NCBI RefSeq assembly: GCF_000497125.1 | Contig: NC_090602.1 | Location: 310,001 to 374,000, forward strand | Length of the DNA stretch: 64,000 bases | Origin: Spironucleus salmonicida | Lineage: Eukaryota | Direction of reading: 5' to 3' | Shown: positions 6,321 to 37,842 of the stretch, in pieces | Position numbering within the stretch: position 1 is the first letter of the stretch | Layout: the number at the start of each line of letters is the position of its first letter | Notes under the pieces: generated by a model | The model's input: only the letters and a program-made list of their open reading frames with translations | The model's database searches: none | Told to the model about the DNA's origin: nothing | Program-made: the position numbers and the translations under genes

Positions 6321-6341
6321 GCCGTTTTGTCACTCCTCTAA

Positions 6342-7280
6342 ATGAAGATCCTCGTCACCTCCGATTTTCACGGCAACCCGCACCACGCCGAGGCGGCCCT
6401 GCTGGCAGCAGAACGCACGCGGCCCGATGTGTTTGTGTACGCCGGCGACCTCTCCCCGGTGCGGCACGACTTCCCCACGCCCGAGGCCCAGCACCAGCAG
6501 GTGGAGCAGGGGGTGTTCCGGGCCTTCAGCGCGATGGCCGTGCCCCACACGTTCGTGATGCCAGGCAATACGGATTTTGCGACGAACTGCCGCCGCTGGG
6601 CCGCGAGCACCGAGCACGGCTTCGCCTTCGTGCAGGACCAGAGCGTGCGGCTGGGCGGGCTCAACCTCGTGTTCCTCTCCACGGTGCCCGAGACCAACCA
6701 CTGCCTCAAGGACTGCGAGGCCCTAGAGACCGTGCCGCACCTCCACGACGTGTCCTACGTGTTCTCGGGCCGCTCCGCCGACCCCACCAAGACCGCCTCC
6801 GACGGGCTCACCTACGGCCCAGACTTCGAGATCTACGACTCCTACGCCCAGGTGCCGCAGTCCCACCGCGCGCGCTTCGAGCACACCATCCGCGCCCGAC
6901 TGGACGAGCTGTCGGACCCCACCGTGCCCCAGCTGCTCTTCTCGCACGCACCGCCGCAGAACGTGTGCGCGGACACGGTCCTGAACCGGCAGAAGCAGCC
7001 CAAGCACATCGGGTCCGCCGACATCGCGGCCTTCCTGCGCGCGACGCCCTCCGTGCAGGCCTGCTTCTCGGGCCACGTGCACCAGTCGGTTCTGGTCACG
7101 GGGCGCTTCGAGGACGCGCTCGGGCCCACGCAGGTGCTCAGCACGGGCAACTCCGGCATCGACTTCTGCATGATGGAGCGCGCCTGGTTCCTGCTGTACG
7201 ACACCGAGACGCGCGAGTGCGAGCGCTTCGGGCTGGACGTCCCGGCCTTCCCGCACGGGCTGAACCGCGTGTTCGTCTGA
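6342..7280 (+). CDS. Calcineurin-like (Icc-type) metallophosphoesterase, 312 aa
   Basis: Motifs SDFHG, AGD, GNTD, SHAPP, GHVH in canonical order; CACTCC before the ATG. Confidence 0.9.
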   Translation: MKILVTSDFHGNPHHAEAALLAAERTRPDVFVYAGDLSPVRHDFPTPEAQHQQVEQGVFRAFSAMAVPHTFVMPGNTDFATNCRRWAASTEHGFAFVQDQSVRLGGLNLVFLSTVPETNHCLKDCEALETVPHLHDVSYVFSGRSADPTKTASDGLTYGPDFEIYDSYAQVPQSHRARFEHTIRARLDELSDPTVPQLLFSHAPPQNVCADTVLNRQKQPKHIGSADIAAFLRATPSVQACFSGHVHQSVLVTGRFEDALGPTQVLSTGNSGIDFCMMERAWFLLYDTETRECERFGLDVPAFPHGLNRVFV

Positions 7281-7293
7281 GTGAGCGAAAGAG

Positions 7294-7947: not shown

Positions 7948-7965
7948 TCGGAGTGAAGTGACCGA

Positions 7966-8961: not shown

Positions 8962-9002
8962 TTTAGAATAGAAAGAGTGGGTTATATACGGGTTACTAAA
9001 AC

Positions 9003-9647
9003 TCACTGCCGCAGTATCGCCACCGCGCCCTGCCGCGCGTGGTCCTCCCGGTGCTGGAAGAGCTCGTTGACCTGGTTCTCGACGGCCGTGAGCTGCTGGC
9101 CCACGATCCGGAGCATGCGGCGATCGTACGCCTCCTCCAGCCGCCGCTTGTAGATCATGCGCTCGACTCCGGCATGGAACTACCGGATCTTGAGGATCTT
9201 GCGCTTCTGGTACTCCTGCTGGAACGTCTCCAGCTCGCGCATCTTGTCCAGCCGCACCAGGGCCGACACGGCGTCGGTGGGCCGCAGGATGTTCCGGGCC
9301 TGGGCCTCCTTGTTGCGACAGATGTTGAAGCAGTAGATGACGGTGGACGCCCGATTCTTCAGCGCCCGGAAGAGGGCGATGTCCGTGGGGTTCCGGTAGA
9401 TCGAGATGTGCTTCGTGGACCCCGAAGCGCCGTCCTGGTTGGTGATCTTTATGCCGCTCTCGCTTTTGGCCAGCTCCTGCTGCTGGACTATCTTGAAGTG
9501 GTCCGACTGGCCGATGTACTTCAGCTGGGACCGCGTCCGGAAGGCCTCTTTCAGGAACTTCTGGCGGTTCTGCGAGGACAGCAGGCTCTCTGAGAACACG
9601 CTGCTCTTGGCCAGCTGGGGGAGGCTGATTTGCTTCTGGGCGAACAT
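9003..9647 (-). CDS. Hypothetical protein, 214 aa
   Basis: The track ORF MFAQKQISL... continues through TAG(Gln) at 9180-9182 in the same GC3-biased frame to CAG-TGA. Confidence 0.75.
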
Positions 9648-10982
9648 TTTGAATCTACAGTTTGGCGGTTATTTGCTACAATATATACTATTGTTTTTGG
9701 AATACTTCTTTTTTGCCGTTATTAAACTGGTATATACCCATAGAATATAATGAATATCAGCCAAGCGACTAACTGTGGCCACTATCCCAAAGCAGACGGC
9801 ATTATTTAAGCTCCATGGGAACAAACAGTTTCTCAGTTTCCAACTTTCCAGAAACTATTTCAACCTGTATACCGCCTACACACCGATATGCAGCGTTCCA
9901 AAATTACTCCGGGCGCTGTCCGCCGCAGCATGCACTGACGAAATCCGCGATCTGGAGCGAGGCGATCTACAAATATTATTTCCAATACATCCCAAAAGTA
10001 TTTAATAACAATAAGCCCTAAAAACATAACCTTAACCACTAAAACACGGGATCTCATGGCCATTATTATTATAAAGCATAATGCATGCCTATCGACCCAA
10101 AATTTGCTGTCAAATCAATCAAACTATTTTTGGTACAACCGTGGCTTACTCAAGTATAAACGAAGCTTTGTACCAGGCTTCCCCGAACTCAGTATTTTAT
10201 AGCCCGTACTTATAACTATTAAAAGTAGAAATTGTCGGTATTCTTGTTGTTATATTATGTCTGCACGGTTATATGGATCTCAGTTTAGTCTAGTGAAATT
10301 AGAAGCAAATTTGGTGATCATTGGAGTATTGGCTAGATTGCTAGGCATGATTTTGTAAAGTTAGTTGGTGATAGATCTCAAGTCAGAATTATAGTTATAA
10401 TTATGTAAAAATTTTAACGCACAAATTGCGATACTCATCCTTATTGATGATTTATATGGTTTGGAATATATAAATTCCGATGCTGAGTAACGGTATTTTC
10501 AAAATTAAAACAGTATAATAATCTCATATAACTGTAATTAATTTTATATCATATTGCTTTTTATATTTCTGATACATGAATTAGCTACCATAAAATGTCC
10601 AGGAGTACGATCACTGTTAAATTAGATAAAGTTAATTATATGGTAGATATTACCTTCAGGCAACGGATATAGGATATGGACTATTCATAAATTTTATAAT
10701 TGCAGTATTAATCTACTTGATTCTTATATACGAAGTTTTAAATCTGGGTGGAAAATAGCATATAAAATCATAGGTAATATTAATAAGACAATAAGAATAA
10801 ATTAATTGCATTAAACTATGCTATATTTAGATTTCATAATTTATAATATATGGGTATTATAGTAATTTACTTGAGTACTTATTTTAGCATCAGTTACACC
10901 TAAATTACAATTATTTATATAATTCAGATAACTACCTGAAGTCCTGTTATAAAATTTAGGCTACCATTAAATTAATTTTATA

Positions 10983-19733: not shown

Positions 19734-21494
19734 TCACTCCAAACACTTCAAAACGGCATCTGAATTAGCAAATTCGATGGCTCTTTTACCTTCCTTATTC
19801 AGCAGGTTTTTTTCGAACTTTACCAAATTACGAATTAATCCTAAATTTGTACCCTTAAATGAAGCCATCATAAGAGCACTGGTACCATCTTTAAGCTACT
19901 TACCAGAATTTGCTAAAATAAGTGAATTTTCAGCTTTCGAATCTAGATTAGAGTCACATTTTATATAAAACATTAGAGGAGTTGTACCATCCTTTAGAAA
20001 TACATTACTCTATGATTTTATAAGAACTCTAACACACTCGCTAGACCCTGCTTAAATAGCAACAAACAAAGCAGGGATATTATCAGTAAAATTTAAAAAC
20101 TTTTTAGTAAGACTTTCTAGCTCTTTTTTGCATATTTACTATTATTGTACATTATATATAAAATTAGTTAACTTTGATGATCCAAAGCGTGCGACATCTG
20201 AAATGACTTTTACTACTTAAAATTTGTTTGCAGCACAAGCACGAAGCATCACATTTTGTATGAAATCTCTTTATAACAGTACTGGAACTACCTTTCCAGC
20301 ATCATTTTAAAGTGCTAAATCAATAGCAGTTTCTCCTTTTGCATTTTTACGTTTTTTGAAAGTCTCAGCAACAACATCAATTGAGTGAACAGAATTACTC
20401 AAAGCTGCATGCATAGAAGGTGTATTTTAAGTAGGTGGAAGAGTATCTTTTTCGTATTAAAGAAGGAACGAAACAGCAGCAAAATTATCGCATTCACACG
20501 CATAAATAAGCGAGGATTTGCCTTCTAAATCAACATTATTTTAGAAGTTTTAAACAATTTGTGGAAGAATTGCATTATTTTGGGCATGGTTAACAACATA
20601 GTGCATCAAATGCCTATTTTACTTGTCTAAAATTATACTTTCTTCAGTAATTAAGAGAGCTAAACATTCTACATGACCATTTTCAGCAGCATACATACTA
20701 GCTGTTTTCCCTGAATTATCTTGCATTGAAATTTCTGAGATTAATTCATTAATACAGTTTGAATTATTGTTCGCTGCTGCATACATCAGTGCTGTTTTTC
20801 CGTCATTATCAACTGATTTAAGTTGATTTACAAAATATGGAAGAAGTGTTTAAAGACCACTTTCAGCGGCTTTCATAAGCATTGTTGTGTTATTTTTATC
20901 TGAGAAATCGCGCTCTGTTAGTAGATGTTCAGACATTTTCAAGTTTCCAGCATCTAAGCTGAACCATAAACTTGAGCGATTAAACGCATCTTAATGTTAG
21001 AGAAATTATGAAAACCTACCAACTTCTTCTTCAGAAACAGCGGCTGCCATCAGATTTGTTATTTTACCACAATTTTCGTTAATTTAATTAAAAATTGTCA
21101 GATTTCCGAGACATAGAGCGAGTTGCGAAGCTGTATATCCTTCTTTTGATATAATATTTTTTTCTTTTAAAAATTTAGTAACAGCAAGGCTCGAACCTGA
21201 AATAGTTGCATACATAAGGGCTGTGAAGCCATTGTTTGATTGGATTGTTTGCTCAATAAGAAGATCGTTGTAATAATATCCTCTTGCTGCACCATACATT
21301 GACGCGGTAATGCCATTTGCGTCCTAAAGTGTTGATTCATAGGGCGCTAAAATCTCAACTACATTTTAAAGACCACGAGATGAAGCTAACATAAGAGCAG
21401 TACGTTAAAATTAATCACGAGACGTAGAAAATGTTGGTATTAAGGTTTAGATTTAGTCAATATCGGCAGATGCAACAATTTAAAACCAGTTCAT
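19734..21494 (-). CDS. Ankyrin-repeat protein (Protein 21.1-like), 586 aa
   Basis: MNWFQIVAS... then repeated RTALMLAS, GFTALMYAT, GKTALMYAA, GTSALMMAS. Confidence 0.85.
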
Positions 21495-21687
21495 TCAGAA
21501 TTTGGAGTGGCAGAATAGGATATGAGATATTATATTTTAAAAAATCAATTATTTTTAGGTTAACGAATTAACAGATATGGACTATTATATAATAAATAAG
21601 CAAAAAAGTTTAATAAAGTTTATTAGTTCAGCATAGAGATAAATAGATCTAATAACAAATTATATTATTATTAAGTCAAAGCATGAA

Positions 21688-21873
21688 TCACTCATCTTCG
21701 CCAGCTTCAAGTACTGCATTGTTTTAACATACAGCTTTACAGTTACCACAATCCACACAACCATCAGGATCTATAAAACAGCTTTCGTTGACAAGACTAA
21801 TTGCATCAGCAGGACATTAAGTCAGGCAGTTTTGGCAGCCTTAACATACTGATGCTTTTATTTTGTGAGGCAT
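21688..21873 (-). CDS. 2[4Fe-4S] ferredoxin, 61 aa
   Basis: MPHKIKASVCQGCQNCLTQCPADAI...IDPDGCVDCGNCKAVCQNNAV: two CxxCxxCxxxC motifs. Confidence 0.9.
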
Positions 21874-22404
21874 TACAAGAAAAGAAGTGGTATCTAAGTT
21901 ATCATCGACTCAAGCAATAAAATAATATTTTATATTAATAGATATGTTTTAAAAATGTAATTAATTTATATGTTTACAGTATTAGCCAAATATAATAAAA
22001 ATGTTGTTTAACTGGATTGAAACAATATATCTTATAAATATATTAGTATTATATAATCTTATGTATATAATTATTATTAAAAATTATATTCAATTAATGT
22101 AAATTTAGATACATAATCGTTTTTTAAATCGAAAAGAAATTAGTTACTAATAATTATATAATTATAATTTATTGTCCGTTAGAAAGGAATTCTATAGTTA
22201 TAATAACAAAGAATGCTATTATTAATACTTTATAAACAAACTATTTCCTATATTATAAACCAATATATATCTTTTGTCCAAACCTTAAAGATATTTTTGG
22301 TTTGATTTAAGTATTCACATAGATAAATTCTAGAAACTATAAAACAATAAATTTTACATTCATGAAAACAAATATCATTTGCATCATATAAATATTTTCA
22401 AAAA

Positions 22405-22818
22405 ATGGAGCATCAAATTGAAAAAGACATCATATAGTTTTCAAAACTGACTTTTGATTGCATAAATATGGACTCTCTACAATAAAAAACCTATATTCCT
22501 AAAAAAGTTGGTTATAATAACATTATTTAGAGGGTTCCGTTTGTTCCATCATATAGATCTGTTCTGAAGCAAAAATCGTACTACGACCTGCCGGGGCGGA
22601 TCGACGAGAAGTGCCAGCAAAAGCTGCACAAGCTGGACGCCATCAAGTCCGCCAGGCAGCTGCAGTACAGGGAGCAGTACGAGGTGGTTGAGCGGCCCAA
22701 GACGCAGTGCGGGAGGGCGACGCCGAGGCAGCCGGCAGTGCGAACGCCGAGCCCCCTCCGAACTGGCGCGATCCGGAGGGAGCTGAGCCACTTCGTGAAG
22801 TACCATGCGGTCGAGTGA
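22405..22818 (+). CDS. Hypothetical 137-aa protein, copy 1 (AT-rich 5' part, GC-rich 3' part inside repeat B)
   Basis: MEHQIEKDIIQFSKLTFDCINMDSL...SVLKQKSYYDLPGRIDEKC...KYHAVE-TGA, open under code 6. Confidence 0.8.
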
Positions 22819-22862
22819 GCGGGTGATGCTATTGGGGCGCGACGATCCTCCGCTGCGGGCGC

Positions 22863-23756
22863 TCACCGTTGCACCAGCCCCAGGTCCAGGCGGTTGTGCA
22901 TCTCTCCGCCGCACACGACGCAGGTCTCGTCGTTCTTGAAGGTCACGACGCTCTTCTCGCACCGGGCGCACACGGCCTCGAACTGCCAGATCTCGCGCTC
23001 CACGATGCGGTGGTTGAGCTGCAGGCAGCGCTTCCAGCGTTCGAGGTACACCTTCTGGCAGTCCAGGCAGTGGAAGCAGGCCACCGCCTGGTTCTCGTAG
23101 CGGGCCTCCTCGAAGCGGATGGGCGCCGGGAGGTGGAACTGCCGCGTGCGCGTCCGCTCGAGCTGCTCGAGCTGCAGGGCCTGCTGGTGCAGGAAGTCCT
23201 GGTACTCCCGCGCGAGGCCGCGGCTGAGGTCCAGGAAGCGGAACTGGCCCGTGAGGCGCTGCTGCCGGAACTCGAGCTGCTGGTTCAGCGCGCGGAACTG
23301 CCGGTCGTAGTGGCGGTTGCACAGCAGCAGCTCCCCGAAGACGGGGCTGGCGCAGTGCAGCAGCCGGCAGGTGCGGGGCCGCTGCCCCAGGTTGATGAGC
23401 TGCGCCTGGCTGTCGACCACGAGGCAGTACGTATCCCTTTTGGCGGTGAACAGCCGGAAGTTCACGAGCGCGTACAGCGCGCCCTGCTCCAGCGCCACGC
23501 CAAGGGGGAAGGCGACCACGGCGGCCGAGCTGTCCGCGAAGAGCGTGAAGGTGGGTGTCACGCGCTGGGGGACCGCCAGGAAGACGTGCGCGTCCGGGGC
23601 GAACGAGCACGCCGAGAGCTACGGCCTGGGGTGCACCAGCCCGGGCAGGTCCCGCAGCAGGCCCAGGTGCAGCTCCTTGCGCTGGACGGCGGCGTGCAGG
23701 CGGACGGCTGCCGGTGTGGCGGAGAGGGTGTAGGGCGGCAGGCTCAGCGAGTCCAT
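22863..23756 (-). CDS. MCM10: MCM10-like replication initiation factor, copy 1, 297 aa
   Basis: OB-fold segment EQGALYALVN...CLVVDSQAQLINLG, then a CCCH finger (TC..C...CNRH..QFRAL) and C-terminal CxxC-C-H plus CxxC/CxxC zinc motifs. Confidence 0.7.
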
Positions 23757-23798
23757 TATGGAGGGGAGCTTCGCCCAGAGTCAGTGAGAGGGAGCGGC

Positions 23799-24092
23799 TC
23801 ACATCAGCTTCGCCGGATCGAAGTTGGCGGCGTGGCGCTTGAAGGTCTTCTGGAAGTACTGGGCGGCCTGCTTGTAGTTGATGGGCTTGGTCCCCAGTAG
23901 CTCGCTGTACACCTCCGCCACGCGCTTCATGAACCTGTCGGTGTTCTGAATGACCTTGCGCTCGCGCGCCTCCAGGTACAGCTTGGCGGCGTGCGCCTTG
24001 CTCTGCACCACGATGTCGAAGCTGAACATGACCTCCATGAAGGCCAGGAAGTAGTTGTCGTCCTTGACGGTGTTCAGGGGCATGAACGGCAT
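23799..24092 (-). CDS. Conserved 97-aa hypothetical protein, GC-rich copy 1
   Basis: MPFMPLNTVKDDNYFLAF...; three copies in the window. Confidence 0.85.
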   Translation of the reverse strand: MPFMPLNTVKDDNYFLAFMEVMFSFDIVVQSKAHAAKLYLEARERKVIQNTDRFMKRVAEVYSELLGTKPINYKQAAQYFQKTFKRHAANFDPAKLM

Positions 24093-24797
24093 TATCGCCG
24101 AGAAAGGTTACTATTATCTTCCCTATTAGATAGCTCCCTGATATAACTCTTTGTCGCTCCGCCGCTCCTGGCGAGTGGAAAATGCAAGTGCCGCACGCGG
24201 TCCACTGTGGCAGGGCCTTTCGCTGCGGCCCGTGCGCCAGTCTGGGATGCCAGTGCGAGATTGGAGTGCGGGGTGCCTCTGCGCAGGGTCCCACCGCCCA
24301 ACGGTCCCGGACAGCGGACTGCCACGAGCCAGCCCGCGGGCCCGGATGTTCTGGCGGGCGGGTACCGATTCTATGCATCCTCTGTTGTAGGTCCAGTGGC
24401 GAGGCAGCGCGGCCCTGCAGAGCACGAAGAGACAGACGGATGCGTGGTGCAGAATTTTGCGTGCAGGGCTCCCCGCCGGCAGTAATCGGTCGCCACCGCC
24501 CGGCACGCGCAGGATCGTGCTATCACGCCCTAAGCACGGCGCAATCTCAACAAAATCTGCAACCAGAGAATCACATGCAATGAAAGATATTGTTTTAGGT
24601 AAGTAGTTGTAATTATCTAACATCAAAATTATTGTGGTTAACCTTTTGCATAAGCTAGTCTGATATTTTAAGCATATACTGAATAATAAGTAAATTCACT
24701 CATGTTATTATTTTTTAGTCACGAACCTTTAGTTTGTCAACCTTTAACCTAAAATAATTTTAAGTAATGTTATTATACATTAAATACTAAGATAATA

Positions 24798-24805
24798 CCA
24801 CTCCA
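24798..24805 (+). promoter_or_regulatory. C-rich pre-ATG motif (CCACTCCA)
   Basis: About 10 nt before ATG 24815. Similar motifs at 37943-37950, 39115-39123, 6331-6337 and, on the minus strand, 21503-21510, 17559-17565 and 7950-7955. Confidence 0.7.
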
Positions 24806-24814
24806 AATTTTAAA

Positions 24815-25477
24815 ATGGCCTTTAATTTTGGAGGCGCAGCAGCTAAGCCTACTACTGGCTTCTCTTTCGGTGGTACAGCACCTTCTACAATATAATAACC
24901 AACTTCAGCGTTTGGCACTACTCAACCTGCCACAACATTTGGTTCAGCTTAGCCAACAACTACATTTGGAACATTTGGTGCACAAAAACCAGCTACAGCG
25001 GGATTCGGCAACTTTGGAGCTTCAGCTACTACTGTAAATTCCTCACTACCGTAGCCTATCACACTTTCGCAATAAGATCTTTACTTAGCTCCAGAAGAGC
25101 ATGTCAAACGTCTTTCTTAAGAGCTAGAAATGTAAGCAACACAATTTAGTGAAATTTCTGCAGGAATTTTATAGTAAGATCAAAGAAATTACGAAATTTA
25201 TAATTAACTAGAAACATTTTCTCTTCTACTTGATAAACTCACTTCAAAGCAGGAAAATTAAAGATAGGAAATTGCAAAAATTGCATCAGTTTAATAACAA
25301 TTGTATCAGGATTTGAACCAAAAACCTAAAAACCCAAACGCTAAAATTTCGTAAGTTGCCAGGCTAATGGTAGAAGTTGAATCGTAGATTGAAGCGGTGA
25401 GTGCAGGAAGTGTAAACATTTTGAGGGATATTTAAGAGCAGGCAACCGTATTAGAAAATTTGAAAACAATCAAGTGA
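24815..25477 (+). CDS. NUP62: FG nucleoporin, Nup62/Nsp1-like, 220 aa
   Basis: MAFNFGG...GFSFGG...FG repeats followed by coiled coil ELEMQATQFSE...QQD (Nsp1_C-like). Confidence 0.75.
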
Positions 25478-25505
25478 ATTAATTTAATATTTTAATCAAA
25501 TTCTC

Positions 25506-26054
25506 TCACTAACTCTGCTCCTATTTCCGCTACTTCAAAACACGTTTTCTAGCAATTAGCATATGTTTAAAAAGAAGTGGAAAACCTGGTACGTAAATTA
25601 ATAAAGCTATCAAATCCAACACATTAAATTAACGCTAGAAATGTTAATAAATTAGCGGAATCTCGCCAAAGAAAACACCTATTGGGTATAAAAGCAAGAA
25701 AGCTGAATAACGTAACCATTTTAAGGTTTAAAATGAGTAGTATTAGTATCTTACTACCTCGGCAGATGCCCAAGCTCCTACCATAAGCCGCCAGAAAATA
25801 CAGTAAATTGGATAATTTTATGCAAAAATAGCTATTAAATATACTCTTGAAGCTATTTATATGAATACAATTAGTGGTTTAGATGAAGTAAATTTTAATA
25901 TAGCGTGAAGTACATCCATGACCATAAAGAGTTAAAAGAAAGTGAGGATCTTACAGCATTAAATGGGGTTAGTGAGGTTCATAAAAAAAATAATGAGCCA
26001 GCCTATTACGTTTACTCGGTTATATAACGCTAGATAGAGTGATTTTAGCTTCAT
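25506..26054 (-). CDS. PHS1: Very-long-chain 3-hydroxyacyl-CoA dehydratase (PTPLA/PHS1/HACD), 182 aa
   Basis: YLALYN..GW, DVLHA, QIASR, AWASAEVVRY, WLRYSAFLLLYPIGV..GE. Confidence 0.85.
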
Positions 26055-26106
26055 TTATTTATGCGAAGGTTCAAAAAGGTTATTAAAATAATATATTAAA
26101 TACCAA

Positions 26107-26865
26107 TCACTAGCTGATATCGATAAAATCGTCGCCACAAGTTACTTCAACTAAGCTTGACTGGTTCGTAATGATTTCAACAGCCTTCTTAATAAGAATA
26201 TTATTTTAATTTATCTTTTTCTAAAATTAAATTAGATTTTACTCGGTTTCTTAAACCATGCTGGTAAGGTTTGAGTGGAAATAATCATTTTCTTTAATAT
26301 GTAATTTATTTATCATCCTTGACGATTTCTCAAGTTAGTTAATCGAAGATTACAACAATGAAAGATTTTATTAGTCCATATCACTAGCTCTAGTTTTGCA
26401 CATATTCATGGATTTTTCAATTTCATCTAAGAACATTAAGTCATTTTTCTATTAATTAGACTGAGGTGAAAATGATAGAGGGGCCTGAGAAAGTTCTAAA
26501 TTTAATTAATTAGATTTTGCTAGATCTTACTGATATGATTTTTCTAAGATATTAAGTTCTTCAAGAAATTCAACTGATTTCTTGCGTTCAATTTTTGGTA
26601 AGTACCTAGCCATTACATGATCTGGAATATCAAGAAGCATATTATCTTTGGGAAATTTATTAAAAGGATCCTCTAGCTTATTTATATTATTATCTAAAAT
26701 AGCTTTAACTTAAAGCCTTAATAGCTTACAATACTTTACTACTATTTATTTTTCTGATGATAAATTTGCTGGTCTTTTTAACCTTGATATCCATTTTTTA
26801 ACATATATTTTAATAGATTAAGGCAGTGATTCAACCACATGCTCTACTAATATTAAATTGTCCAT
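26107..26865 (-). CDS. Hypothetical protein, 252 aa
   Basis: Code 6 ORF MDNLILVEHVVESLP..., ending TAG-TGA. Confidence 0.6.
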
Positions 26866-26903
26866 TTGAAATTTTATGGCATAACATATATAATATTAAT
26901 ATA

Positions 26904-27293
26904 TCATTTAAGTTTTCCTTGAAGCGCTGTTCTGTTCAATTTATCATAATTACGCACTATTTAGTCACTAAGTGCGACTTTTTAAAACAAAAGTTCACGA
27001 TACTTTTATAAACCTTATGAAATTTTAAAATCATCTAGTGTAAACTCATACCGTTATAGGGGCGTCTATGATTTAGGTCTAGAAAAACTATTACCGTTTG
27101 ATAGGAAAACTTGTTAGTTGTCCTAAATACATGACGATGAAAGTTTTCTAATAAAGCTTTCATTACTTACCTTAAGTTTGTGAGTTTCATCAGATTCTAC
27201 ATTTATATTAAACAGCATTTCATGATAAACTCGACTCATCGGCTTAGGTTTAATTCTTGATTTAGTTATTGGTAATAAAATAGAGTAACTCAT
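26904..27293 (-). CDS. Hypothetical protein, 129 aa
   Basis: Code 6 ORF MSYSILLPITKSRIKPKP...ALQGKLK-TGA. Confidence 0.55.
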
Positions 27294-27582
27294 TAATAAA
27301 AACAATACAAAAATAATATAAATACTATATCAAAAACAAACTAATTAACCACTTCTGTATGGCTTGACCTGGAGGTTGTGGATCATTAGTTATCATGGCA
27401 GTGTTTGCTATTATATCTAGTTGCATTGAAAAGCGTACAGAGAATAAAAGGTTAAATTCAAAGACTAGTACTAAGTAGGCATGTGGCCCTAAAGGATGAG
27501 GCCGTTGAAGCTAATTACGAATCAATAAATCGGTGAATTTTCCACATAAACTTAGGATTGTGGCAAATGAGATAATATTATA

Positions 27583-28080
27583 TCACTTTTATCCTTCGAT
27601 AACTTTAACATCTTAACCGAATCTTTCATTAGAGTCATATCTAGCTCCACCAGCAGCTCTAATTTTATCTCTAACGAGATCTTTATTAATTTCATCTGAG
27701 TTTCTAGCTTAAATAGTAACATGTATATAGCCCAAACAGCTTTTTAAAGCTTCGCCATGTGGTCCAGCTAGGACACGAGTAACCTACTTGATTGTTTCAG
27801 GAACCCACTATATAAATAAAAATTTGGTTCTGACTGAGGAATCATCGCCGCCATTAACTCTCCATAAAATATAGCAAACTTCGTCAGCTAAGAATTTCTC
27901 AATATCCTCATATGCCTCAGCTTTTCCAGATTCAGCTAAGTAAATTAAGTCCTTTTTACCTGCTACATATTTAAACGCAACAAAATGGACTTCATTGTTA
28001 TCTTCTTTTAATAAGCTTAACTCTTAATCAATTTTTTCTTTATCTTAAAGTTAAATACATTAAACTTTAGTGATTGACAT
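27583..28080 (-). CDS. ADF-H domain actin-binding protein (coactosin/drebrin-like), 165 aa
   Basis: FVAFKY..., GGDDSSVRTKFLFIQWVPE, HVTIQAR, KIRAAGGARY. Confidence 0.8.
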
Positions 28081-28464
28081 TTAGTGGAAGGAATGATATA
28101 TATTTAATAACACTTTAAAGTAATATAATAATTTATAATAATTTGAAAAAACTGTTTACTAGTTATATAAATATTTATTATATACTTAGATGACTACTTT
28201 TTATATGTATGATAAACTGTCTTTAATATTGTTAATTTATATTTGAATATAACTTTATGATCACAGATTATCTATTCTATGTACTAATTTCATCTTTTAA
28301 AAAATTATTATACATATTTATCTATAGCTTTGATGCAATTTACAAAAATAAGCCGGGATTAAGCTAGATTTGAATTTAATTTAAAATTTGAAATTAATAT
28401 TATCACATAATAAGATATTATTCTTTTACAATATTAAAAATCATTATAAATATCAATTTATCAC

Positions 28465-29241
28465 TCAAATAACATTTTCAACTTTTAAGTATTCAGTCTT
28501 GAAATCCATTTCGTCAAACTTCTTTTGAATTGCCCAAATACCTGCTTACTCGCTTCTCCAATGGCCTAAAACTAACAAACCTAACCCGTTTTCTAAACTA
28601 TTTATGGGGTGATACTCACTAATCTCGCCTAAAATAAAAAGTTGACAGTCTCCAAAAACACTTTCAGCAGCATTACCACTCCCACCACTACAAACGAAAA
28701 TTTTTTCAGGTACCTCTTGACTCTACCATAAAAGTGAGTTTCCAATTGATTTTGGACCAAATTTAGATTCTGAGGTTACTGTTATCTTATAGTTTTCCTC
28801 TCCAAAAAACGTATTAAGCTTTTCTGCAATTTGGGTACATGTAAGTTTTAAAGAATTTTTACCGACAAAACCACATGATTATCTAACACAATCAGTAAGA
28901 CCTATTTCACGTGAAATAACTGCATTATGACCAAATTCCTCCTAACCATCTAAAGGTAAATGATAAGCAAAAACTGAAATTCCGGCTCTACAAAGCTTTC
29001 TTAATTTTGAAGCTTCTGTGCGTTAAAAGCAGAAAAATTTTTTTCCGAAATATCCATGGTGCACGAAAATGGCGTCAAAATTATTAGCAATTGCATAGTC
29101 GATTAGATGCTCTGAAATAGAGACTGAAAATAAGATGGACCTGATCAGACGATCACCTTCAAGCTAAAGACCATTTATTGTGAAATCGTCAAAATGAGGA
29201 AACCAGGGTGAAATCTTTTTTAATAAATCTTATGGATGCAT
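28465..29241 (-). CDS. NIF3/YbgI-like dinuclear metal protein, 258 aa
   Basis: DFTINGLQLEG, AIFVHHGYF, AYHLPLDG..ELGHN, VCSGGSG, FLGEISE, GHWRSEQAG. Confidence 0.85.
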
Positions 29242-29609
29242 TTGTTAAAAAGTGATTTACTTAATATTATATTAATATTATAATTATACCTTGATAGAAT
29301 ATATACAAAATAAACGAAAGTATATGAAAATATATTAGTAGCTATAACTGATATATAAATATTAGTTATATTTTTTAAACATTTAGGTAAACTTATAAAT
29401 TAATATGTTTATATAATAGAAATGATCTTTAGTTCCGAATAATATTAATAACTTTCACAAAAAGAATTATAATTATCTTTTCTAATTTTATATGTATAAA
29501 ATTAATAAGCATATTAATGTAATTTTTAACTCAATATTTATGTTAATTAAGAATGATTTTATTAAGATTATATAATATATAGTACTATTAGTATAATTTT
29601 TTGGTCAGA

Positions 29610-29918
29610 ATGGGTGCGGATATTCCGACTTTAGGTATGCCAACAATTAATTTAAGCAGACCAGTTAGTTATGATATTTCTCAATAAATGTAATCGTAAG
29701 TAAAGAGTTCGTCTTTTTAAGCAATGCTTAACGATACTTATTGTTAATAAGAGGCATAACAAACTGATACCAATTATTGTTGGTTTGGAGAGAAGAAGTG
29801 TAAAATACATGGAGGTAGCGAGTGTTATGACTTCAGTTATATTAGTAAAATAGATGAATAGAGTAATGTAGATAACATGGAAGTTAGTTAAAGTTAAAAT
29901 GTTAGCTTTTGGGTTTGA
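29610..29918 (+). CDS. Hypothetical protein, 102 aa
   Basis: Code 6 ORF MGADIPTLGMPTINLSRP...SFWV-TGA. Confidence 0.45.
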
Positions 29919-30017
29919 TATGATTACATACATATTTTTCAGTAAGTGTAAATAAAACTCAGTCATTATTAATAATTAGCATTGTATTTATTGAATAACA
30001 TTGAAAATATTGTTATT

Positions 30018-30734
30018 ATGTAAAATGAAACAGTAAATGCAAAGATATCTTTGCACCCACTTTTCTATAAAATACTAGGAGAGCTAGTCACCAAGTAGAT
30101 ATTATTATATTAGTTTGTATTTTTCAGTATAACTGGATAGTTAAATGTTGAATTTTGTAATATTTCAATATTATCTTAGCTCTCATACGAAAGAAATTAA
30201 TTCTATAAATGTATAACTATTTCTTATTAAGGTGTAAAAGCTTTTGTCAATTTCTTTAACTAACGATATGTAATAATATTACTGTACTAATCATAAATAT
30301 ATGTTGTAGACGAAGTTTAAATATTATCTAGAGAAATTTACTCAATAGAAAATTCAAACAAATCCATAGCATTAGTTGTAAATTCATAGAAAATCTACTA
30401 ATCCTTTTTAACAATAAAAATAGCAGTTCTCTATATAAATACATTGTCTAATTTTGAATTTGTGATAACAAGCTCTAAAATTGCATCTTCATTAGTTTTA
30501 ATATAAAGTTAATTTAGTCCTTACAATACCCCAAAATTAGTACTTTCTTATAAAAATAAAGTCCTTGATGTAGTAAAATTTTTATATTCCAATGTTAAAT
30601 GGGGTGCTGAGCCGGTTTTATATATCTAAAAGTTTTATGTTGAAAAATTAATCTATAAATTTTGTGAAGAGTTGATATATATACTTTAGTTAGGTGGCAC
30701 AACTATCGACTATTTTTTCAACGAGTACATTTGA
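30018..30734 (+). CDS. Hypothetical protein, about 238 aa (start uncertain)
   Basis: Code 6 ORF MQNETVNAKISLHPLFY...FFNEYI-TGA. Confidence 0.45.
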
Positions 30735-30891
30735 TGAGCGTAAGAAGCTAGAGTAAATGTAAGTATAACATCAATCGTTGCAAGAGCTATCATTTTCTGA
30801 CTTAGATAATTATGTTTATTATAATATATAACTTAAAAATTATTCATTGACTATAATTATTAATTACTTTACCTTCCACAAACCATTCTAA

Positions 30892-31512
30892 ATGAAGCAT
30901 ATATTTCCCCACTTAAAGCTAAATTTTACTCGTGCAGAAAAGCGTCTCAACTAGTTCATTTTAGAAAAGTTCCCTTATTTCAAGCCTACAAGGCCAACAG
31001 TCGATGACCTCCGCACATTGGAGTCTTAAAAATAAAATATTGAAATCAACTTTGAGGCGCTCTAAATGCTCCAAGCTGACCTTATTTTAAAAGACTTATC
31101 GGCACTAATTACCATACTAAACTAAGGAAAACAGCTAATCTAAGTCTACTTTAGGCAGTTGCAAAAAGACAAAAGATAGCTTATGCGAGATTTGAAATTC
31201 GCCGACAACTCGCTCGCTGCCCTGGAATTTCAACGAAATTGGCTTCCATACCGCCCCTATCACGTTGTTTTCAGGCCAAATTTTCCAAATTTGGAGGAGC
31301 AGCTCAAAATTCAAAACGATTTTGCGCTCCAATTGAGCTCAAAGGTCTTCACAAAGTGCGACGCGAACTTAGCACCGGAAATGCTGTACTTTGTTGATTT
31401 GACCAGAGTGTGCAGAGCCTGCTTGCGGCTGCAAAACAGCAAAGAGGAAGGCGATTTTGCCGCTATCAACGAAGAAGGTGAGGGCGTCGATTTGGGATAA
31501 TTTTTCGAGTGA
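30892..31512 (+). CDS. Hypothetical protein, 206 aa
   Basis: MKHIFPHLKLNF... in frame with track ORF 31183-31500, read through TAA to GAG-TGA. Confidence 0.7.
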
Positions 31513-32057
31513 AGTATTGCTGCGTATTTCATTTTATCAAATTATAGCATTAAATAGTATAAAAATTATTTTCAGTTTACGGATAGGGCAATGCTTTGGT
31601 TGAGATTGCGCCGTGCTTAGGGCGTGATAGCACGATCCTGCGCGTGCCGGGCGGTGGCGACCGATTACTGCCGGCGGGGAGCCCTGCACGCAAAATTCTG
31701 CACCACGCATCCGTCTGTCTCTTCGTGCTCTGCAGGGCCGCGCTGCCTCGCCACTGGACCTACAACAGAGGATGCATAGAATCGGTACCCGCCCGCCAGA
31801 ACATCCGGGCCCGCGGGCTGGCTCGTGGCAGTCCGCTGTCCGGGACCGTTGGGCGGTGGGACCCTGCGCAGAGGCACCCCGCACTCCAATCTCGCACTGG
31901 CATCCCAGACTGGCGCACGGGCCGCAGCGAAAGGCCCTGCCACAGTGGACCGCGTGCGGCACTTGCATTTTCCACTCGCCAGGAGCGGCGGAGCGACAAA
32001 GAGTTATATCAGGGAGCTATCTAATAGGGAAGATAATAGTAACCTTTCTCGGCGATA

Positions 32058-32351
32058 ATGCCGTTCATGCCCCTGAACACCGTCAAGGACGACAACTACT
32101 TCCTGGCCTTCATGGAGGTCATGTTCAGCTTCGACATCGTGGTGCAGAGCAAGGCGCACGCCGCCAAGCTGTACCTGGAGGCGCGCGAGCGCAAGGTCAT
32201 TCAGAACACCGACAGGTTCATGAAGCGCGTGGCGGAGGTGTACAGCGAGCTACTGGGGACCAAGCCCATCAACTACAAGCAGGCCGCCCAGTACTTCCAG
32301 AAGACCTTCAAGCGCCACGCCGCCAACTTCGATCCGGCGAAGCTGATGTGA
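32058..32351 (+). CDS. Conserved 97-aa hypothetical protein, GC-rich copy 2
   Basis: Same translation as 23799-24092. Confidence 0.85.
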   Translation: MPFMPLNTVKDDNYFLAFMEVMFSFDIVVQSKAHAAKLYLEARERKVIQNTDRFMKRVAEVYSELLGTKPINYKQAAQYFQKTFKRHAANFDPAKLM

Positions 32352-32393
32352 GCCGCTCCCTCTCACTGACTCTGGGCGAAGCTCCCCTCCATA

Positions 32394-33287
32394 ATGGACT
32401 CGCTGAGCCTGCCGCCCTACACCCTCTCCGCCACACCGGCAGCCGTCCGCCTGCACGCCGCCGTCCAGCGCAAGGAGCTGCACCTGGGCCTGCTGCGGGA
32501 CCTGCCCGGGCTGGTGCACCCCAGGCCGTAGCTCTCGGCGTGCTCGTTCGCCCCGGACGCGCACGTCTTCCTGGCGGTCCCCCAGCGCGTGACACCCACC
32601 TTCACGCTCTTCGCGGACAGCTCGGCCGCCGTGGTCGCCTTCCCCCTTGGCGTGGCGCTGGAGCAGGGCGCGCTGTACGCGCTCGTGAACTTCCGGCTGT
32701 TCACCGCCAAAAGGGATACGTACTGCCTCGTGGTCGACAGCCAGGCGCAGCTCATCAACCTGGGGCAGCGGCCCCGCACCTGCCGGCTGCTGCACTGCGC
32801 CAGCCCCGTCTTCGGGGAGCTGCTGCTGTGCAACCGCCACTACGACCGGCAGTTCCGCGCGCTGAACCAGCAGCTCGAGTTCCGGCAGCAGCGCCTCACG
32901 GGCCAGTTCCGCTTCCTGGACCTCAGCCGCGGCCTCGCGCGGGAGTACCAGGACTTCCTGCACCAGCAGGCCCTGCAGCTCGAGCAGCTCGAGCGGACGC
33001 GCACGCGGCAGTTCCACCTCCCGGCGCCCATCCGCTTCGAGGAGGCCCGCTACGAGAACCAGGCGGTGGCCTGCTTCCACTGCCTGGACTGCCAGAAGGT
33101 GTACCTCGAGCGCTGGAAGCGCTGCCTGCAGCTCAACCACCGCATCGTGGAGCGCGAGATCTGGCAGTTCGAGGCCGTGTGCGCCCGGTGCGAGAAGAGC
33201 GTCGTGACCTTCAAGAACGACGAGACCTGCGTCGTGTGCGGCGGAGAGATGCACAACCGCCTGGACCTGGGGCTGGTGCAACGGTGA
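32394..33287 (+). CDS. MCM10: MCM10-like replication initiation factor, copy 2, 297 aa
   Basis: ATG 32394, TAG(Gln) at 32529; same motifs as copy 1. Confidence 0.7.
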
Positions 33288-33331
33288 GCGCCCGCAGCGG
33301 AGGATCGTCGCGCCCCAATAGCATCACCCGC

Positions 33332-33745
33332 TCACTCGACCGCATGGTACTTCACGAAGTGGCTCAGCTCCCTCCGGATCGCGCCAGTTCGGAGGGGGCT
33401 CGGCGTTCGCACTGCCGGCTGCCTCGGCGTCGCCCTCCCGCACTGCGTCTTGGGCCGCTCAACCACCTCGTACTGCTCCCTGTACTGCAGCTGCCTGGCG
33501 GACTTGATGGCGTCCAGCTTGTGCAGCTTTTGCTGGCACTTCTCGTCGATCCGCCCCGGCAGGTCGTAGTACGATTTTTGCTTCAGAACAGACTTTATTG
33601 AAGGAGTATAAAGCGCCCTTTAAATTATATGATTATAGTTAACTGTCTTCGGTATATATGTTACTGATAAGATTTAATCCATATTAGTTGAGTCAAAAGT
33701 CAACATAGAAAACTAAAGAGTATGCTTATCAATATTCTACTACAT
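33332..33745 (-). CDS. Hypothetical 137-aa protein, copy 2 (diverged AT-rich N-terminus)
   Basis: MQQNIDKHTLQFSMLTFDSTNMDQI...PSIKSVLKQKSYY..., same length as copy 1. Confidence 0.8.
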
Positions 33746-34788
33746 TTTCAAAAATTTATTAAGATTAACTAATAGTTATATATTAAAAAATACTGATTGC
33801 TGGTTTCTTCACTTAATTATATTCATTTATTTACTAATATATTAGAGTCAAAGAAATATTAAGAAAAGGCGTTAAAATTTCGATTAATAAATATTAATTA
33901 TTGCACTATAAAGGTAATTATTTTATTAACGTGCTAATAATAATCTTTATCAAGCATAACCTTTATATCTATTATATTTTAAACATTATTATACGTATTA
34001 ATTGTTGTGACTTTTGACCACTATTTGAAGGTAATAAACTCCCAGTCGCATTAAATTTAATTATTTGATAACCTTTTTATTTTAAAATAGGCTGATTAAT
34101 GACTATTTATAGCGTTTTCCAATATATTATATAAGATAACATAATACATTCTTGTAATATTCCTAAATATATAATCAACTAAATATTATTTAAATATCAA
34201 CCTATTAATAATACTATAAAATATATACTTTTAAAACCTCTTTAATCATATTAAAATTAACAAACATACTTAAAGTCTTTTCATTTTTACTAATATTATA
34301 GGGTATAAATAAAATAATATGAGATGAATATACTCTAAGCTAAATTTACGAATGTTATTACTATAATAAAATTAGCTAAACGTAGTTTGAACAAATTTTT
34401 ATTATTTTTATTTCAATAATGCATCATTAATTAAAATATTTTATAATTGAAAAAAATTATTTTAAAATAAGTCGGAATTTTAATAATAAAAATCAATAAA
34501 TAAATATTAACAAAATTTATAGCAATATGGCTTATATTTTTCATAAAATACACCTAATTGTAACACACTCAGATAAGTCGAATATTTAAATGAAAAACAC
34601 ATGAAAAGCAAAAGCTAACATAAGTAATCATAAATAAATCTATTTAATCTTGCTATAACTGATACAAAGAATCAAACTCTAGATTGCTAATCCTGTAGGC
34701 TTGAACGGCGCATTTTTCATTCCCACTCCTTTTTAGTAAATTTTATATATTATTATATATAATATTATATATAAAATTACCGCAAATT

Positions 34789-37700
34789 ATGCTATCGTAG
34801 CTTTCACCGGCCTCACAACTTTTCGCGAAACTGGCAGTCTACGGGACTGCACCCGCAGACTTCACGGCATTCAAAACGGCCCAGTAGCCGCTCCCTAAAC
34901 TGCCGGAACCACAATTTTTGAAGCATCAGTCTCTAGAGGAGCAGCGCATTAACTGGCTTGGGAGCCAGGCAAAGGAGCAGGTGAACCTGTGCAAGCAAAA
35001 TATGGAAGACCGTACGCGCTAAATTGCGGCGCTAGAGCGCCAAAAAGAGTACAAAATGGACAGTTTGAGCACGATCGAACTGGAGAACTACCTGCAGGAC
35101 CAGCAGTTTGAGTTTGACAGAATCATGCATATGAGCCGCTTCTAGGAAGGTGACCATGCGATATTTGCGATCGTGAAGGAGTTTTGCGAAAAACGGGTCC
35201 AAATCGAAGAATTTCCTGTCAAAAACGAGATTTTGTCGCTCTACAGCAGCGACACCCTCTAGAAACTGAAAAATTCAGAGCTTATTGAGCTGATGAAGGA
35301 GGATATTCAAAAGGAGCTTTTGATCGTAAAGGAGCTACAAAGCTAGAGGTCAATTTACTGTTACCTAGATAAATTTTCAGGGGCCTATTCAAATATCGCT
35401 AAGAAGGTATAATAGAGCAATTTTAAATTTCAAAAAACTGAGAAAGTCAACGAAAAGAAGAAAACAGAAATCGAAGTCATCGAAGAATGGGTAGAAGATA
35501 GATCTGAGTACAAGTCAATTGAGGATATCGTTGAAAATTTGGACGAACTCATTCTTTTCATCGAGTTTATGTAATTTTTATAGCTAAAATAACTGAAATA
35601 AGAATAAAATATTGAGGTGAAATCATAAGAGAAAGTTTTAGAAGAAGCAAACTAGAATTAATCTGAGATTTAGAAGGATGAAATAATTGAAGATATGCCA
35701 TAAAAAAATGTCACGCGGTATTTAGGTATCATTTCTTAATTAAAGAAAGATTTCTAGGTAAATGAAATGGCAGAGCAATTGGCTGTCTAAATATACAGTT
35801 TTAATGATAATTTCAGAGAGGTAATTCCAGATTTTTGTGAATAGTACTTGATTATAAATAATATTCCTTGTGATATTAAAGTTTTAGAAGATCTAGATCA
35901 GTTTCTTATAGGGTTATAAAATGAAAGAGCGCTAAAAAATACTGAATTGGAGATTAATCTGAACATAACTGCTTTTGATAAAATCATCGTAAATAGTTTT
36001 GGTTCGTTAAATTAACTTTTATAAGCTAATCTAGCTAAAGTATATTTAGTTGATCATATATAAGTAGGATTTAATTATGATTAATATAGTTATGATTAGA
36101 TTAAAAATATTCACAGTGAAGCTAAACTTATTACTGATTTAGATGAAATTATTAAGGCTCAGTTAAATGGGTAAGCTATCTTGCATTAATTTAACTTTAA
36201 CTTTTTAGGTCACTGGAATTTATTTTAGAACTTTTTATCAGATTTATATTTAAAATATTCTTCTAAAAATGTAGGAGTATCATGGTAATTTTAGTAATTT
36301 AATCGATTAATAGTTGAAAATCCAGTTTTTGAAGATATAATTTGTGATCTTTATGATTTAGATGAAAAAAGGAATATAATCTTTCATTGGGAAATTAAAA
36401 ATATTATACAGCTAGGTGAAAAATTGATGGAAAGTTATTGTCATTTAAATAATATCAATAATAATATGAAAAAGATATAATTTGAAAAAGATAAAGAAGC
36501 AGAATTGGCTACAATGGATCCAAAAAAACGACCCCCTCCTAAAAAAGCAGAAAAATTAGTATGCACACCAGTTGAATTTATCGATTCCCTTAAATTCTTT
36601 GTAAATAATTAAGAACTATTAGATTTAGTTAAAGAATTTAAGATGTCAAAAATTAATTTAGATAATGAAATTCATATTTTTGAATAAATGTTTTTAACAA
36701 TTTAAATAATCATGAATGCCTAATAAGCCAATGATATTAGTTCTCTATAATCTGATGTAGATTCATAATTTTCATCATTATTTTAAAAAGTCGTTGTCGA
36801 ATACAACACAATGTTGACATATTTTACATCTGTACATAAAGATTAGAGAGGTGAAGATGTTATTATTTCAGATTAGCTTTTAACCTTAAACTAGATTACA
36901 TCTACATCATTAGAGTCATTCTAAAAACTTTATAGTGATATTGCTACTAATTTTAAGTAAAAATCTGAAAATATATTATAGATTAACAAAAAGTTACCAT
37001 AAGGTGTCATCTTAAATTGTAACTAGATTATTTAACTATATTTAGGATATGAAGTTCCAGAAGAATAAGAAATATCGGCAGATAAAAAGGTTAAACCACC
37101 TTCAAAATAACCTATTTTTAACTTTAGGGATATAAAAATTGAAAATTTTAATTAGCTTATCACACTTTACTGTGCAAGTCTCATTAAATAAATGACAGTC
37201 GTTGCCAAATAGTAATTTAACTTGAAAGTTAAGTGTCATTAAATTATGGTATTATTTTTATCAAACTAAATGAATCTTAAAACATTTTATCCTTACCAGA
37301 TTGAGAAATCTAAACTAATCCCTGCAAAATAGTAAAAATCATTTGATGCTTAATTAGTGCAAATGGATGCTGATGTCTTTATCAAAACTGTAGAATCAGC
37401 TATTCCAGTTGATGGTATCACGGTTGATAAATATTTGCTACTAATTTAAAGTTCTTTTGAAAAAATGCCAAAAACATTCACTAGCTAAGTATTTTGTGAG
37501 GAAAGCAATGAAATTGTAACTCTAAAATTGTAGTAAAATTTATCTTAAATGTTGAGCGATTATACAGATAAAGTTAGTGGAGTATTTTTAAATATGACAG
37601 AAAAAATTAAAGGAATATTAATTAATTATTCATAAAATGTGGTTGAAGTCATTTAGAGCAGTCTAGGAAAATAAGAAGATTTATTTGCTAGTTATGTATA

Positions 37701-37842
37701 AGTAATTGGATAGCTAAGTTAATCAGTTTAAAAATCTATTGAAGCTAATGACTATATAAAGTAAATTGAGCTTAAAGATACATTTGAGATTGTATTAAAG
37801 AAAGAGTATCCTATTATTAATGAGCAATAGGCACAAGAGTGA
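34789..37842 (+). CDS. Large coiled-coil protein, about 1017 aa
   Basis: Long code 6 ORF MLSQLSPASQLFAK...QAQE-TGA, E/Q/K-rich, with a DPKKRPPPKK segment. Confidence 0.7.

Follow-up and report, generated by a model that had tools for sequence, protein, structure and literature searches.

A gene pair at the edge of a homogenised, GC-rich inverted repeat in Spironucleus salmonicida

In the mammalian gene pairs BMP8A/B, DDX19A/B, and TUBG1/2, one part has been homogenised by gene conversion while the rest is diverging, and the converted part has a higher GC content, both at third codon positions (GC3) and in non-coding sequence, than either the diverging remainder or the flanks (Carson and Scherer 2009, PMC2720389). 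A related arrangement is described here for Spironucleus salmonicida, a diplomonad that parasitises fish, in a stretch of 64,000 nucleotides of contig NC_090602.1 (positions 310,001 to 374,000, forward strand, assembly GCF_000497125.1), hereafter the window, within which all coordinates are given. The element in question is an inverted repeat with two GC-rich arms, the outer edges of which are each crossed by one copy of a short gene, gene A. The mammalian pairs and the gene A locus have in common part-homogenised paralogues, a GC-richer converted part, and a copy number of two. However, the contrast is far larger at gene A, with GC3 values of 0.27–0.31 and 0.87–0.97 within one 137-residue gene; in addition, its diverged part is saturated at silent sites, its copies lie in an inverted repeat, and its host is a protist with an alternative genetic code. 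The mammalian pairs were subjected to a tree-based orthologue test (PMC2720389); the gene A pair is compared between its two copies. The basis of all results is the one 64-kb window, public reads, and the literature.

Primate palindromes have arms of many kilobases or more, and their genes belong to testis-expressed families, a setting unlike the present one. They nonetheless share with this locus inverted arms of >99.9% identity, a unique spacer, and GC-richer, gene-bearing arms (Hallast et al. 2013, PMC3723533; Jackson et al. 2021, PMC8981503). The arms of the primate X palindromes are given as ~46% GC against 41% in their flanks (PMC8981503). The gap between arm and flank is therefore ~5 points in the primate palindromes and ~35–38 points here, roughly seven times as large, in arms of 2 kb. 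GC-biased repair during conversion has been proposed both for the converted mammalian pairs and for the primate X palindromes (PMC2720389, PMC8981503).

S. salmonicida has posed a compositional puzzle since 2007, in that short segments of 65–70% GC with GC3 near 1 lie in an AT-rich genome. Andersson et al. (2007, PMC1805757) called these segments a “peculiar phenomenon” not easily explained by scenarios of mutation or selection, and Roxstrom-Lindquist et al. (2010, PMC2874811) reported that genes with high GC3 in S. salmonicida have orthologues of lower GC3 in S. barkhanus. More recently, duplicated regions (≥2 kb, ≥95% identity) were found to make up 19.2% of the chromosome-scale assembly, with a mean GC of 44.7% compared with 30.7% elsewhere (Xu et al. 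2022, PMC9509377); the only mentions of gene conversion in the portion of that paper considered concern chromosome ends and the surroundings of cysteine-rich membrane proteins. The present locus exhibits both published patterns, the segments with GC3 near 1 and the GC-rich duplicates. It differs in that no gene crossing a tract edge is described in the portions of the three papers considered, and the cause was left open in those of 2007 and 2010. A full-text search of open-access papers returned none that joins “biased gene conversion” with “Spironucleus”. The type of mechanism discussed below is already known, and the GC-rich segments and GC-rich duplicates of S. salmonicida have already been published without this explanation. 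What is new is modest: one particular pair of genes, verified here, that runs across the edge of a tract and ties the GC puzzle of 2007 to the duplication statistic of 2022.

Two ages within one reading frame

Along most of its length, the window is 23–35% GC, and TAA and TAG are read as glutamine (table 6, under which the open reading frames (ORFs) were called); the ankyrin-repeat gene at 19734–21494, for example, harbors 26 such codons. An inverted-repeat search returned arms at 22389–24555 and 31595–33761, 7,039 bp apart and exactly mirrored (22405 + 33745 = 22389 + 33761 = 56150). Compared base by base, 22558–24555 is the reverse complement of 31595–33592 except at 23040 and 24552, i.e., two differences in 1,998 bp (99.9% identity), both of which set A/T against G/C (n = 2). 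Inverted arms of very high identity thus flank a unique spacer, as in a palindrome. The features are the following.

22558..24555, no strand: left arm, homogenised GC-rich tract of 1,998 bp, GC ~0.65, recovered as a single 1,994-nt contig in DNA run X1
31595..33592, no strand: right arm, homogenised GC-rich tract, mirror of the left arm
24556..31594, no strand: unique AT-rich spacer of 7,039 bp, ~7 ordinary genes with TAA/TAG glutamine codons
22405..22818, plus strand: left copy of gene A, 137 residues, codons 1–51 copy-specific and AT-rich, codons 52–137 shared and GC-rich
33332..33745, minus strand: right copy of gene A, 137 residues, same design as the left copy, ATG exactly mirrored
22405..22557, plus strand: diverged, non-converted N-terminal coding part, left; partner 33593–33745 (minus strand)
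33593..33745, minus strand: diverged, non-converted N-terminal coding part, right; partner 22405–22557 (plus strand)

The identical tract takes in silent sites, third codon positions, and 463 bp of non-coding DNA. Because silent and non-coding sites are identical, protein selection cannot account for the identity of the arms, and maintenance by selection is ruled out. Outside the tract, the mirrored alignment retains 62–66% identity out to ~22400 and then falls to 30–42%, the random level for AT-rich DNA. Upstream of the ATG, the two copies are at random identity (37%; local-alignment z = 1.0 against 200 shuffles), and beyond the inner edge the remnant homology is not significant (z = 2.3 against 200 shuffles).

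The two ages meet inside gene A. Codons 1–51 of the copies align without gaps and share 27 of 51 residues and 96 of 153 nucleotides; the last difference is nucleotide 153 of the ORF (22557/33593), and the copies are identical from 22558/33592 onward. The 96 identical nucleotides compare with a mean of 46.1 (standard deviation (sd) 5.4, maximum 65) in 5000 dinucleotide shuffles, giving z = 9.3. When the left N-terminus was aligned without gaps against AT-rich 153-nt pieces of the window, none of 14,819 reached 96 identities (maximum 69). At the protein level, the ungapped BLOSUM62 score is 141, compared with −39.5 (sd 15, maximum 28) in 20,000 shuffles, giving z = 12. A near-identical tract therefore abuts homologous, far more diverged sequence in the same register, with 2 differences in 1,998 bp on one side, 57 in 153 bp on the other, and no indels.

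The N-terminal differences bear the marks of coding sequence. They fall 13, 16, and 28 at the first, second, and third codon positions (chi-square p = 0.036). Nei–Gojobori counts (table 6) yield a proportion of synonymous differences (pS) of 0.82, which is beyond saturation, and a proportion of nonsynonymous differences (pN) of 0.257. The amino acid is altered in 24 of 51 codons, compared with 33.4 expected for 57 random differences; only 2 of 20,000 simulations had as few amino-acid changes. An in-frame TGA arose in 7,304 of the 20,000 simulations, whereas neither gene A copy has one. The shared part shows a strong three-base GC periodicity in the same frame, and both exact proteins are present in public protein collections. 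By codon-position bias, pS/pN, the constraint simulations, and frame periodicity, both ORFs are genes, with N-termini that are under purifying selection and saturated at silent sites.

Saturation at silent sites, together with random-level identity upstream of the ATG, indicates that the duplication is old, and the saturated paralogous flanks exclude a recent one. An earlier note, made from the letters of the window, had proposed exactly this on the basis of the mirrored 137-residue ORFs (22405 and 33745), their gap-free, roughly half-identical first 51 residues, and the AT-rich, TAA/TAG-using character of those parts, and each of these observations holds. The similarity it relied on withstands shuffling at both the nucleotide and the protein level, and its view that the duplication once reached further is borne out for at least 153 nt past the identical tract. 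Its further claim, that only the inner tract is still homogenised, agrees with the 1,998 bp and two differences found here.

The gene A family could not be placed among known proteins. It has no Pfam match, with nothing credible even at E values up to 10, and a word-based protein search for relatives returned only the two window proteins. A HMMER scan of 1.84 billion representatives gave its own cluster and one hit of 376 residues (E = 1.7e-4). The latter was dropped as a chance match, being a translated tandem repeat that matches 25 residues five times.

Junctions in DNA and RNA-like contigs

Contigs from four public runs (DNA, X1 and X4; RNA-like, X5 and X6) were mapped to 21400–25600, which contains one arm only. 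In X1, an 11,171-nt contig covers the left flank and reaches 30 nt into the arm, while an 11,226-nt contig carries the unique flank of the right copy followed by the first 30 nt of the arm. Two further X1 contigs exit the inner arm end, one to the left inner flank and one to the right. In X4, a 7,107-nt contig comprises the spacer and, on either side of it, 34 nt of arm in opposite orientation. All four junctions are thus bridged by short-read DNA contigs. At 23040, the contigs of X1, X5, and X6 carry the other base and those of X4 break on either side, the pattern that a genuine difference between arms should give.

The RNA-like runs bridge both outer junctions. A 229-nt contig of X5 (22410–22638) starts 5 nt past the left ATG and spans the junction of unique 5′ and shared 3′ sequence, and a 2,064-nt contig of X6 spans the arm plus 100 nt of the unique N-terminal coding sequence of the right copy. 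Both runs leave the intergenic stretch 21541–22386 uncovered, as RNA would, and their contigs begin and end at gene ends. Both mosaic copies of gene A are real and appear to be transcribed.

These contigs bear directly on the possibility that the contig is collapsed, chimeric, or falsely palindromic. Near-identical inverted repeats are difficult to assemble, and the depth of the arm in X4 is not doubled. However, the short-read contigs link the arm to its two outer and its two inner flanks, each pair being distinct, and one contig is exactly the spacer with inverted arm ends, and the behavior of the contigs at 23040 agrees with the arm difference. Furthermore, misassembly cannot create flanks that are diverged yet paralogous. 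An assembly artefact is essentially refuted, and its residual probability is negligible.

Composition of the arms and the genes within them

Composition, too, changes within gene A. The N-termini have a GC of 0.28 (left) and 0.27 (right) and a GC3 of 0.27 and 0.31, compared with 0.64 and 0.87 in the shared part. In the left copy, G/C-ending codons number 14 of 51 before the edge and 75 of 86 after it (Fisher p = 1.5e-12). Glutamine usage follows the same division: the N-termini use TAA/TAG three and five times and CAA/CAG twice and not at all, while the shared part uses CAA/CAG in all eight cases and TAA/TAG in none.

The limits of identity and of GC can be compared at both ends of the tract. 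At the outer edge, GC3 switches near 22576, ~6 codons (18 nt) inside the identity edge at 22558; codons 52, 53, 56, and 57 still end in A/T, and thereafter A/T endings occur in only 7 of 80 codons. The identity edge and the GC-richness of the shared DNA stand as the earlier note had them, and the position of the GC3 switch refines its account, in which the two coincided. At the inner edge, identity ends at 24551–24555, and GC falls from ~0.6–0.7 to 0.2–0.3 within ~30 nt (window from 24540). The two limits coincide to ~18 nt at the outer edge and ~10–15 nt at the inner edge. This coincidence links GC-richness to homogenisation; it carries no date.

The enrichment in the tract relative to its flanks is seen both at GC3 and in non-coding DNA. 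GC3 is 0.87–0.97 in the arms and 0.23–0.45 in unique genes, including the ~7 AT-rich genes of the spacer (0.23–0.45). Non-coding GC is 0.63–0.73 in the arms, the two short intergenic spacers having 0.73 and 0.64, compared with ~0.15–0.30 in adjoining unique non-coding DNA (200-nt windows, 22000–22399 and 24600–24799).

The remainder of the tract comprises two further genes and a non-coding inner end.

22863..23756, minus strand: left copy of gene B, 297 residues, Cys-rich C-terminus, orphan; right copy 32394–33287 (plus strand)
23799..24092, minus strand: left copy of gene C, 97 residues, no family; right copy 32058–32351 (plus strand)
24093..24555, no strand: non-coding inner end of the left arm, 463 bp; right copy 31595–32057

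Gene B has a GC3 of 0.97 and strong periodicity. It contains an in-frame TAG at codon 46, and third-phase GC is 0.93–0.95 in the windows that cover this codon. The two gene B proteins are identical, the arm difference at 23040 being synonymous (GAA and GAG at codon 239). Paired Cys motifs are found in its C-terminus. Database searches found no homologue, and Pfam gave nothing credible at E values up to 10. A weak structural match to MCM10 (OB fold plus zinc motif; TM 0.40), given by a low-confidence model of the Atlas (pLDDT 0.56), falls below the bar; if it holds, a change in protein composition driven by GC may be hiding a conserved replication factor in gene B.

Gene C also exhibits strong periodicity (GC3 0.97, GC2, i.e., GC at second codon positions, 0.29) and is covered by RNA-like contigs. 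Its database searches returned unnamed eukaryotic clusters only, with no credible Pfam match at E values up to 10.

The non-coding end (GC 0.63) lacks codon periodicity. RNA-like contigs of X5 and X6 cover it and continue across both inner junctions, and it shows the highest contig depth of the examined stretch (1,085 in X5). A structured RNA was rejected: an Rfam scan of the whole window gave nothing at the gathering threshold, a looser scan gave two sub-threshold hits only (E = 0.11 and 0.81, bit scores far under gathering), and 24093–24555 folds no better than shuffles (z = −0.5 and 0.07). Its transcript may be a new RNA, the product of read-through, or a long leader that belongs to gene C.

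A Pro/Arg/Ala-rich ORF of 609 residues runs antisense through each arm, at 22549–24378 (minus strand) and 31772–33601 (plus strand). It was rejected as a gene since it is at odds with the codon periodicity that genes A, B, and C display. Such an ORF is an artefact of 65–70% GC DNA and a code with a single stop codon, and automatic annotation could take both copies for genes.

Each of the three long GC-rich stretches of the window is an arm of an inverted repeat. Besides the two arms above, there is a 3.8-kb island of 67% GC at 5861–9680. The first 145 nt of the window (58% GC) are a 99% inverted match to 5874–6018, at the start of this island, which places its partner arm beyond the left end of the window, with 5.7 kb of AT-rich spacer in between. 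The island and this partner make up a second palindrome, of the same design as 22558–24555/31595–33592. Its features include the following.

6342..7280: calcineurin-like phosphoesterase, 312 residues
7294..7947: ORF of 217 residues, resembling the sperm-tail PG-rich (SHIPPO) repeat of Pfam only weakly and below threshold (E = 0.0017; 19.8 bits, cut-off 20)

The phosphoesterase matches a public S. salmonicida protein at 100% identity, in keeping with the hexamitine origin guessed in the earlier note, and its nearest relatives are Hexamita inflata proteins at 38% identity. Its Gly/Ala/Arg/Pro (GARP) fraction is 0.29, compared with 0.16 in its two H. inflata relatives. The proteins of the tracts are shifted towards these four residues and so may look like orphans. 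The island also holds a membrane-anchored ORF, and at its right edge (9000–9700) a GC gradient extends across another ORF.

The contents of the arms and of this island allow the origin of the arms as a mobile or foreign cassette to be weighed. On this account, a 2-kb GC-rich cassette was inserted twice at the same codon of an old paralogue, and the reading frame open into it is secondary. The compositional edges are sharp, and genes A and B have no detectable relatives, both of which suit an insertion. However, the arm ORFs contain no transposase, integrase, or reverse-transcriptase domains, and inspection by eye, with no formal search, shows no obvious terminal repeat or target duplication at the edges. 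In the frame of gene A, codon periodicity runs on across the edge, gene B requires TAG to be read as glutamine, and identity ends 18 nt outside the GC switch, within AT-rich coding sequence. The other GC island carries ordinary eukaryotic genes. The locus thus does not behave as a mobile or foreign insert, an origin considered very improbable.

The case of the earlier note against its three alternatives holds as well, and neither of the two outcomes that it named as refuting was observed. A recent duplication is countered by paralogous flanks already saturated at silent sites. A collapsed assembly is countered by DNA contigs over all four junctions, the 7,107-nt spacer contig among them, and each junction of unique 5′ and shared 3′ sequence is also covered in an RNA-like run (X5 on the left, X6 on the right). 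A foreign insert is countered by the in-frame TAG of gene B, the island phosphoesterase with its H. inflata relatives, and the 51 paralogous N-terminal codons.

Several compositional observations lie outside the tract itself. Beside the right arm, GC3 is mildly raised, to 0.55–0.75 in the first ~480 nt of a 1,017-residue gene (34789–37842) and to 0.45–0.60 in the last 400 nt of 30757–31512. Possible explanations are margins of other tracts with partners elsewhere, DNA that once belonged to an arm, or the spill-over of a recombination hotspot. A tandem array at 53440–54825 consists of ~18 copies of a 72-nt unit (24 codons) with higher-order periods of 225 and 297; it is repeated and partly homogenised, and its GC is raised to 37–43% from ~27% around it. 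A tRNA scan of the whole window found no genes, so the small GC peaks of the window are not tRNAs.

Probable mosaic concerted evolution and its alternatives

The locus is probably an old inverted duplication under mosaic concerted evolution, in which the inner tract is homogenised by conversion between the arms and its GC gain is linked to that process. Non-allelic gene conversion from arm to arm, a form of recombinational repair, would hold the inner 2.0 kb of both copies identical, that is, the final 86 codons of gene A together with genes B and C and the non-coding 463 bp. This exchange, or a process closely tied to it, would have driven the tract to ~65% GC and a GC3 of 0.87–0.97, with GC-biased repair of heteroduplex DNA as the leading candidate. 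By analogy with the mammalian pairs and the primate X palindromes, such repair would be the simplest cause of the GC-richness of the arms. The outer limit of conversion would lie inside gene A at codon 51/52. Beyond it, the copies have diverged to silent-site saturation but have kept purifying selection, AT-rich composition, and TAA/TAG glutamine codons. This divergence may now block the extension of heteroduplex, making the edge self-sustaining. The data show directly the anatomy, the two ages, the selective constraint, that all junctions are real, and the common limits of identity and GC; that conversion has recurred instead of happening once, and that a bias of repair caused the GC gain, we infer.

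Several observations weigh against this reading or narrow it. With two copies and no outgroup, recurrent conversion and one recent event look alike, and no substitution is polarised; searches of protein databases found no orthologues of genes A and B. Neutral site classes are not raised alike: across five coding segments of the GC islands (gene A from codon 52 on, gene B, gene C, and the two island genes listed above), G/C occupies 525 of 555 four-fold degenerate sites (94.6%), but it occupies 291 of 459 arm non-coding sites (63.4%; Fisher p = 1.6e-37), i.e., fractions of 0.946 and 0.634. Because of this gap, uniform neutral biased conversion cannot be the whole story. The gap could possibly reflect constraint on non-coding DNA, a codon-level force or selection, or a later entry of the non-coding DNA into the tract. 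In addition, Andersson et al. (2007, PMC1805757) found that composition predicts a more random codon usage than high-GC3 genes have. The reads carry limits of their own. The RNA label of X5 and X6 is a guess, no run being on record as RNA, and each gene A junction is bridged in just one RNA-like run. X1 and X4 derive from one sample, perhaps the source of the assembly, and are independent in method and not in biology. The depth of the collapsed-arm contig is 1.6 times that of the flanks in X1 and ~1.0–1.1 times in X4, where 2 times is expected, although such depth does not measure copy number and the shortfall could stem from GC bias.

The chief competitor of recurrent conversion is a single recent, homology-guided copying event that overwrote one old paralogue with the 2-kb tract of the other, the tract being already GC-rich for an unrelated reason, e.g., local mutation bias, an allelic or inter-nuclear recombination hotspot, or codon selection. 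Two copies cannot tell one event from many, and the excess of GC at four-fold sites (0.946) over arm non-coding DNA (0.634) hints at a force acting on codons. Likewise, unique genes by the arms have mildly raised GC3 (the end of 30757–31512 and the start of 34789–37842), and Andersson et al. (2007, PMC1805757) were unable to explain the islands by mutation or selection alone. A single event, however, needs an old GC island and a later copying to coincide at both ends within ~20 nt. Homologous repair would work poorly between a donor and a recipient that are ~63% identical, unless similarity across the tract had been maintained throughout. Moreover, every long GC island of the window is a repeat arm, and duplicated DNA is GC-richer genome-wide as reported in PMC9509377. 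A single copying is accordingly judged unlikely, though less so than the insertion of a cassette.

With respect to timing, the earlier note had dated the GC gain to after the duplication, a date that the pair cannot supply. Saturated N-termini would be AT-rich today whatever their earlier composition, having returned to the AT-rich equilibrium, and therefore cannot date the gain. That the gain came after the duplication is nonetheless plausible, and its best outside support is the lower GC3 reported for the S. barkhanus orthologues (PMC2874811). The comparison of codons on either side of 22558/33592 that the note proposed gives a pS of 0.82 in the outer part and a GC3 of 0.27/0.31 against 0.87. 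Overall, the interpretation of the note is partly supported, the gaps being the dating and the step from a GC gain linked to homogenisation to one caused by biased repair.

On a broader scale, it is tentatively suggested that the long-unexplained GC-rich islands of S. salmonicida, with GC3 near 1 in a genome of 33% GC, may all be by-products of concerted evolution, i.e., duplicated segments that conversion keeps identical and that a very strong bias of repair pushes to extreme GC; the odds are put somewhat below even. If this is true, the GC drive would be strong enough to recode glutamine from TAA/TAG to CAG and to shift GARP from 0.16 to 0.29. It would also erase detectable homology, producing apparent orphan genes. 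Pairs straddling a tract edge would then offer internal before/after controls for measuring the bias.

The gene A pair is such a natural control within one reading frame, normal in composition where its copies are diverging and extreme in GC where they are identical, with the change occurring over ~20 nt while gene, chromosome region, and promoter side stay the same. Through edge-crossing pairs, the conversion hypothesis becomes directly testable genome-wide. To our knowledge, sex has never been observed in S. salmonicida. The pair would also make a recombination-linked bias measurable in this diplomonad.

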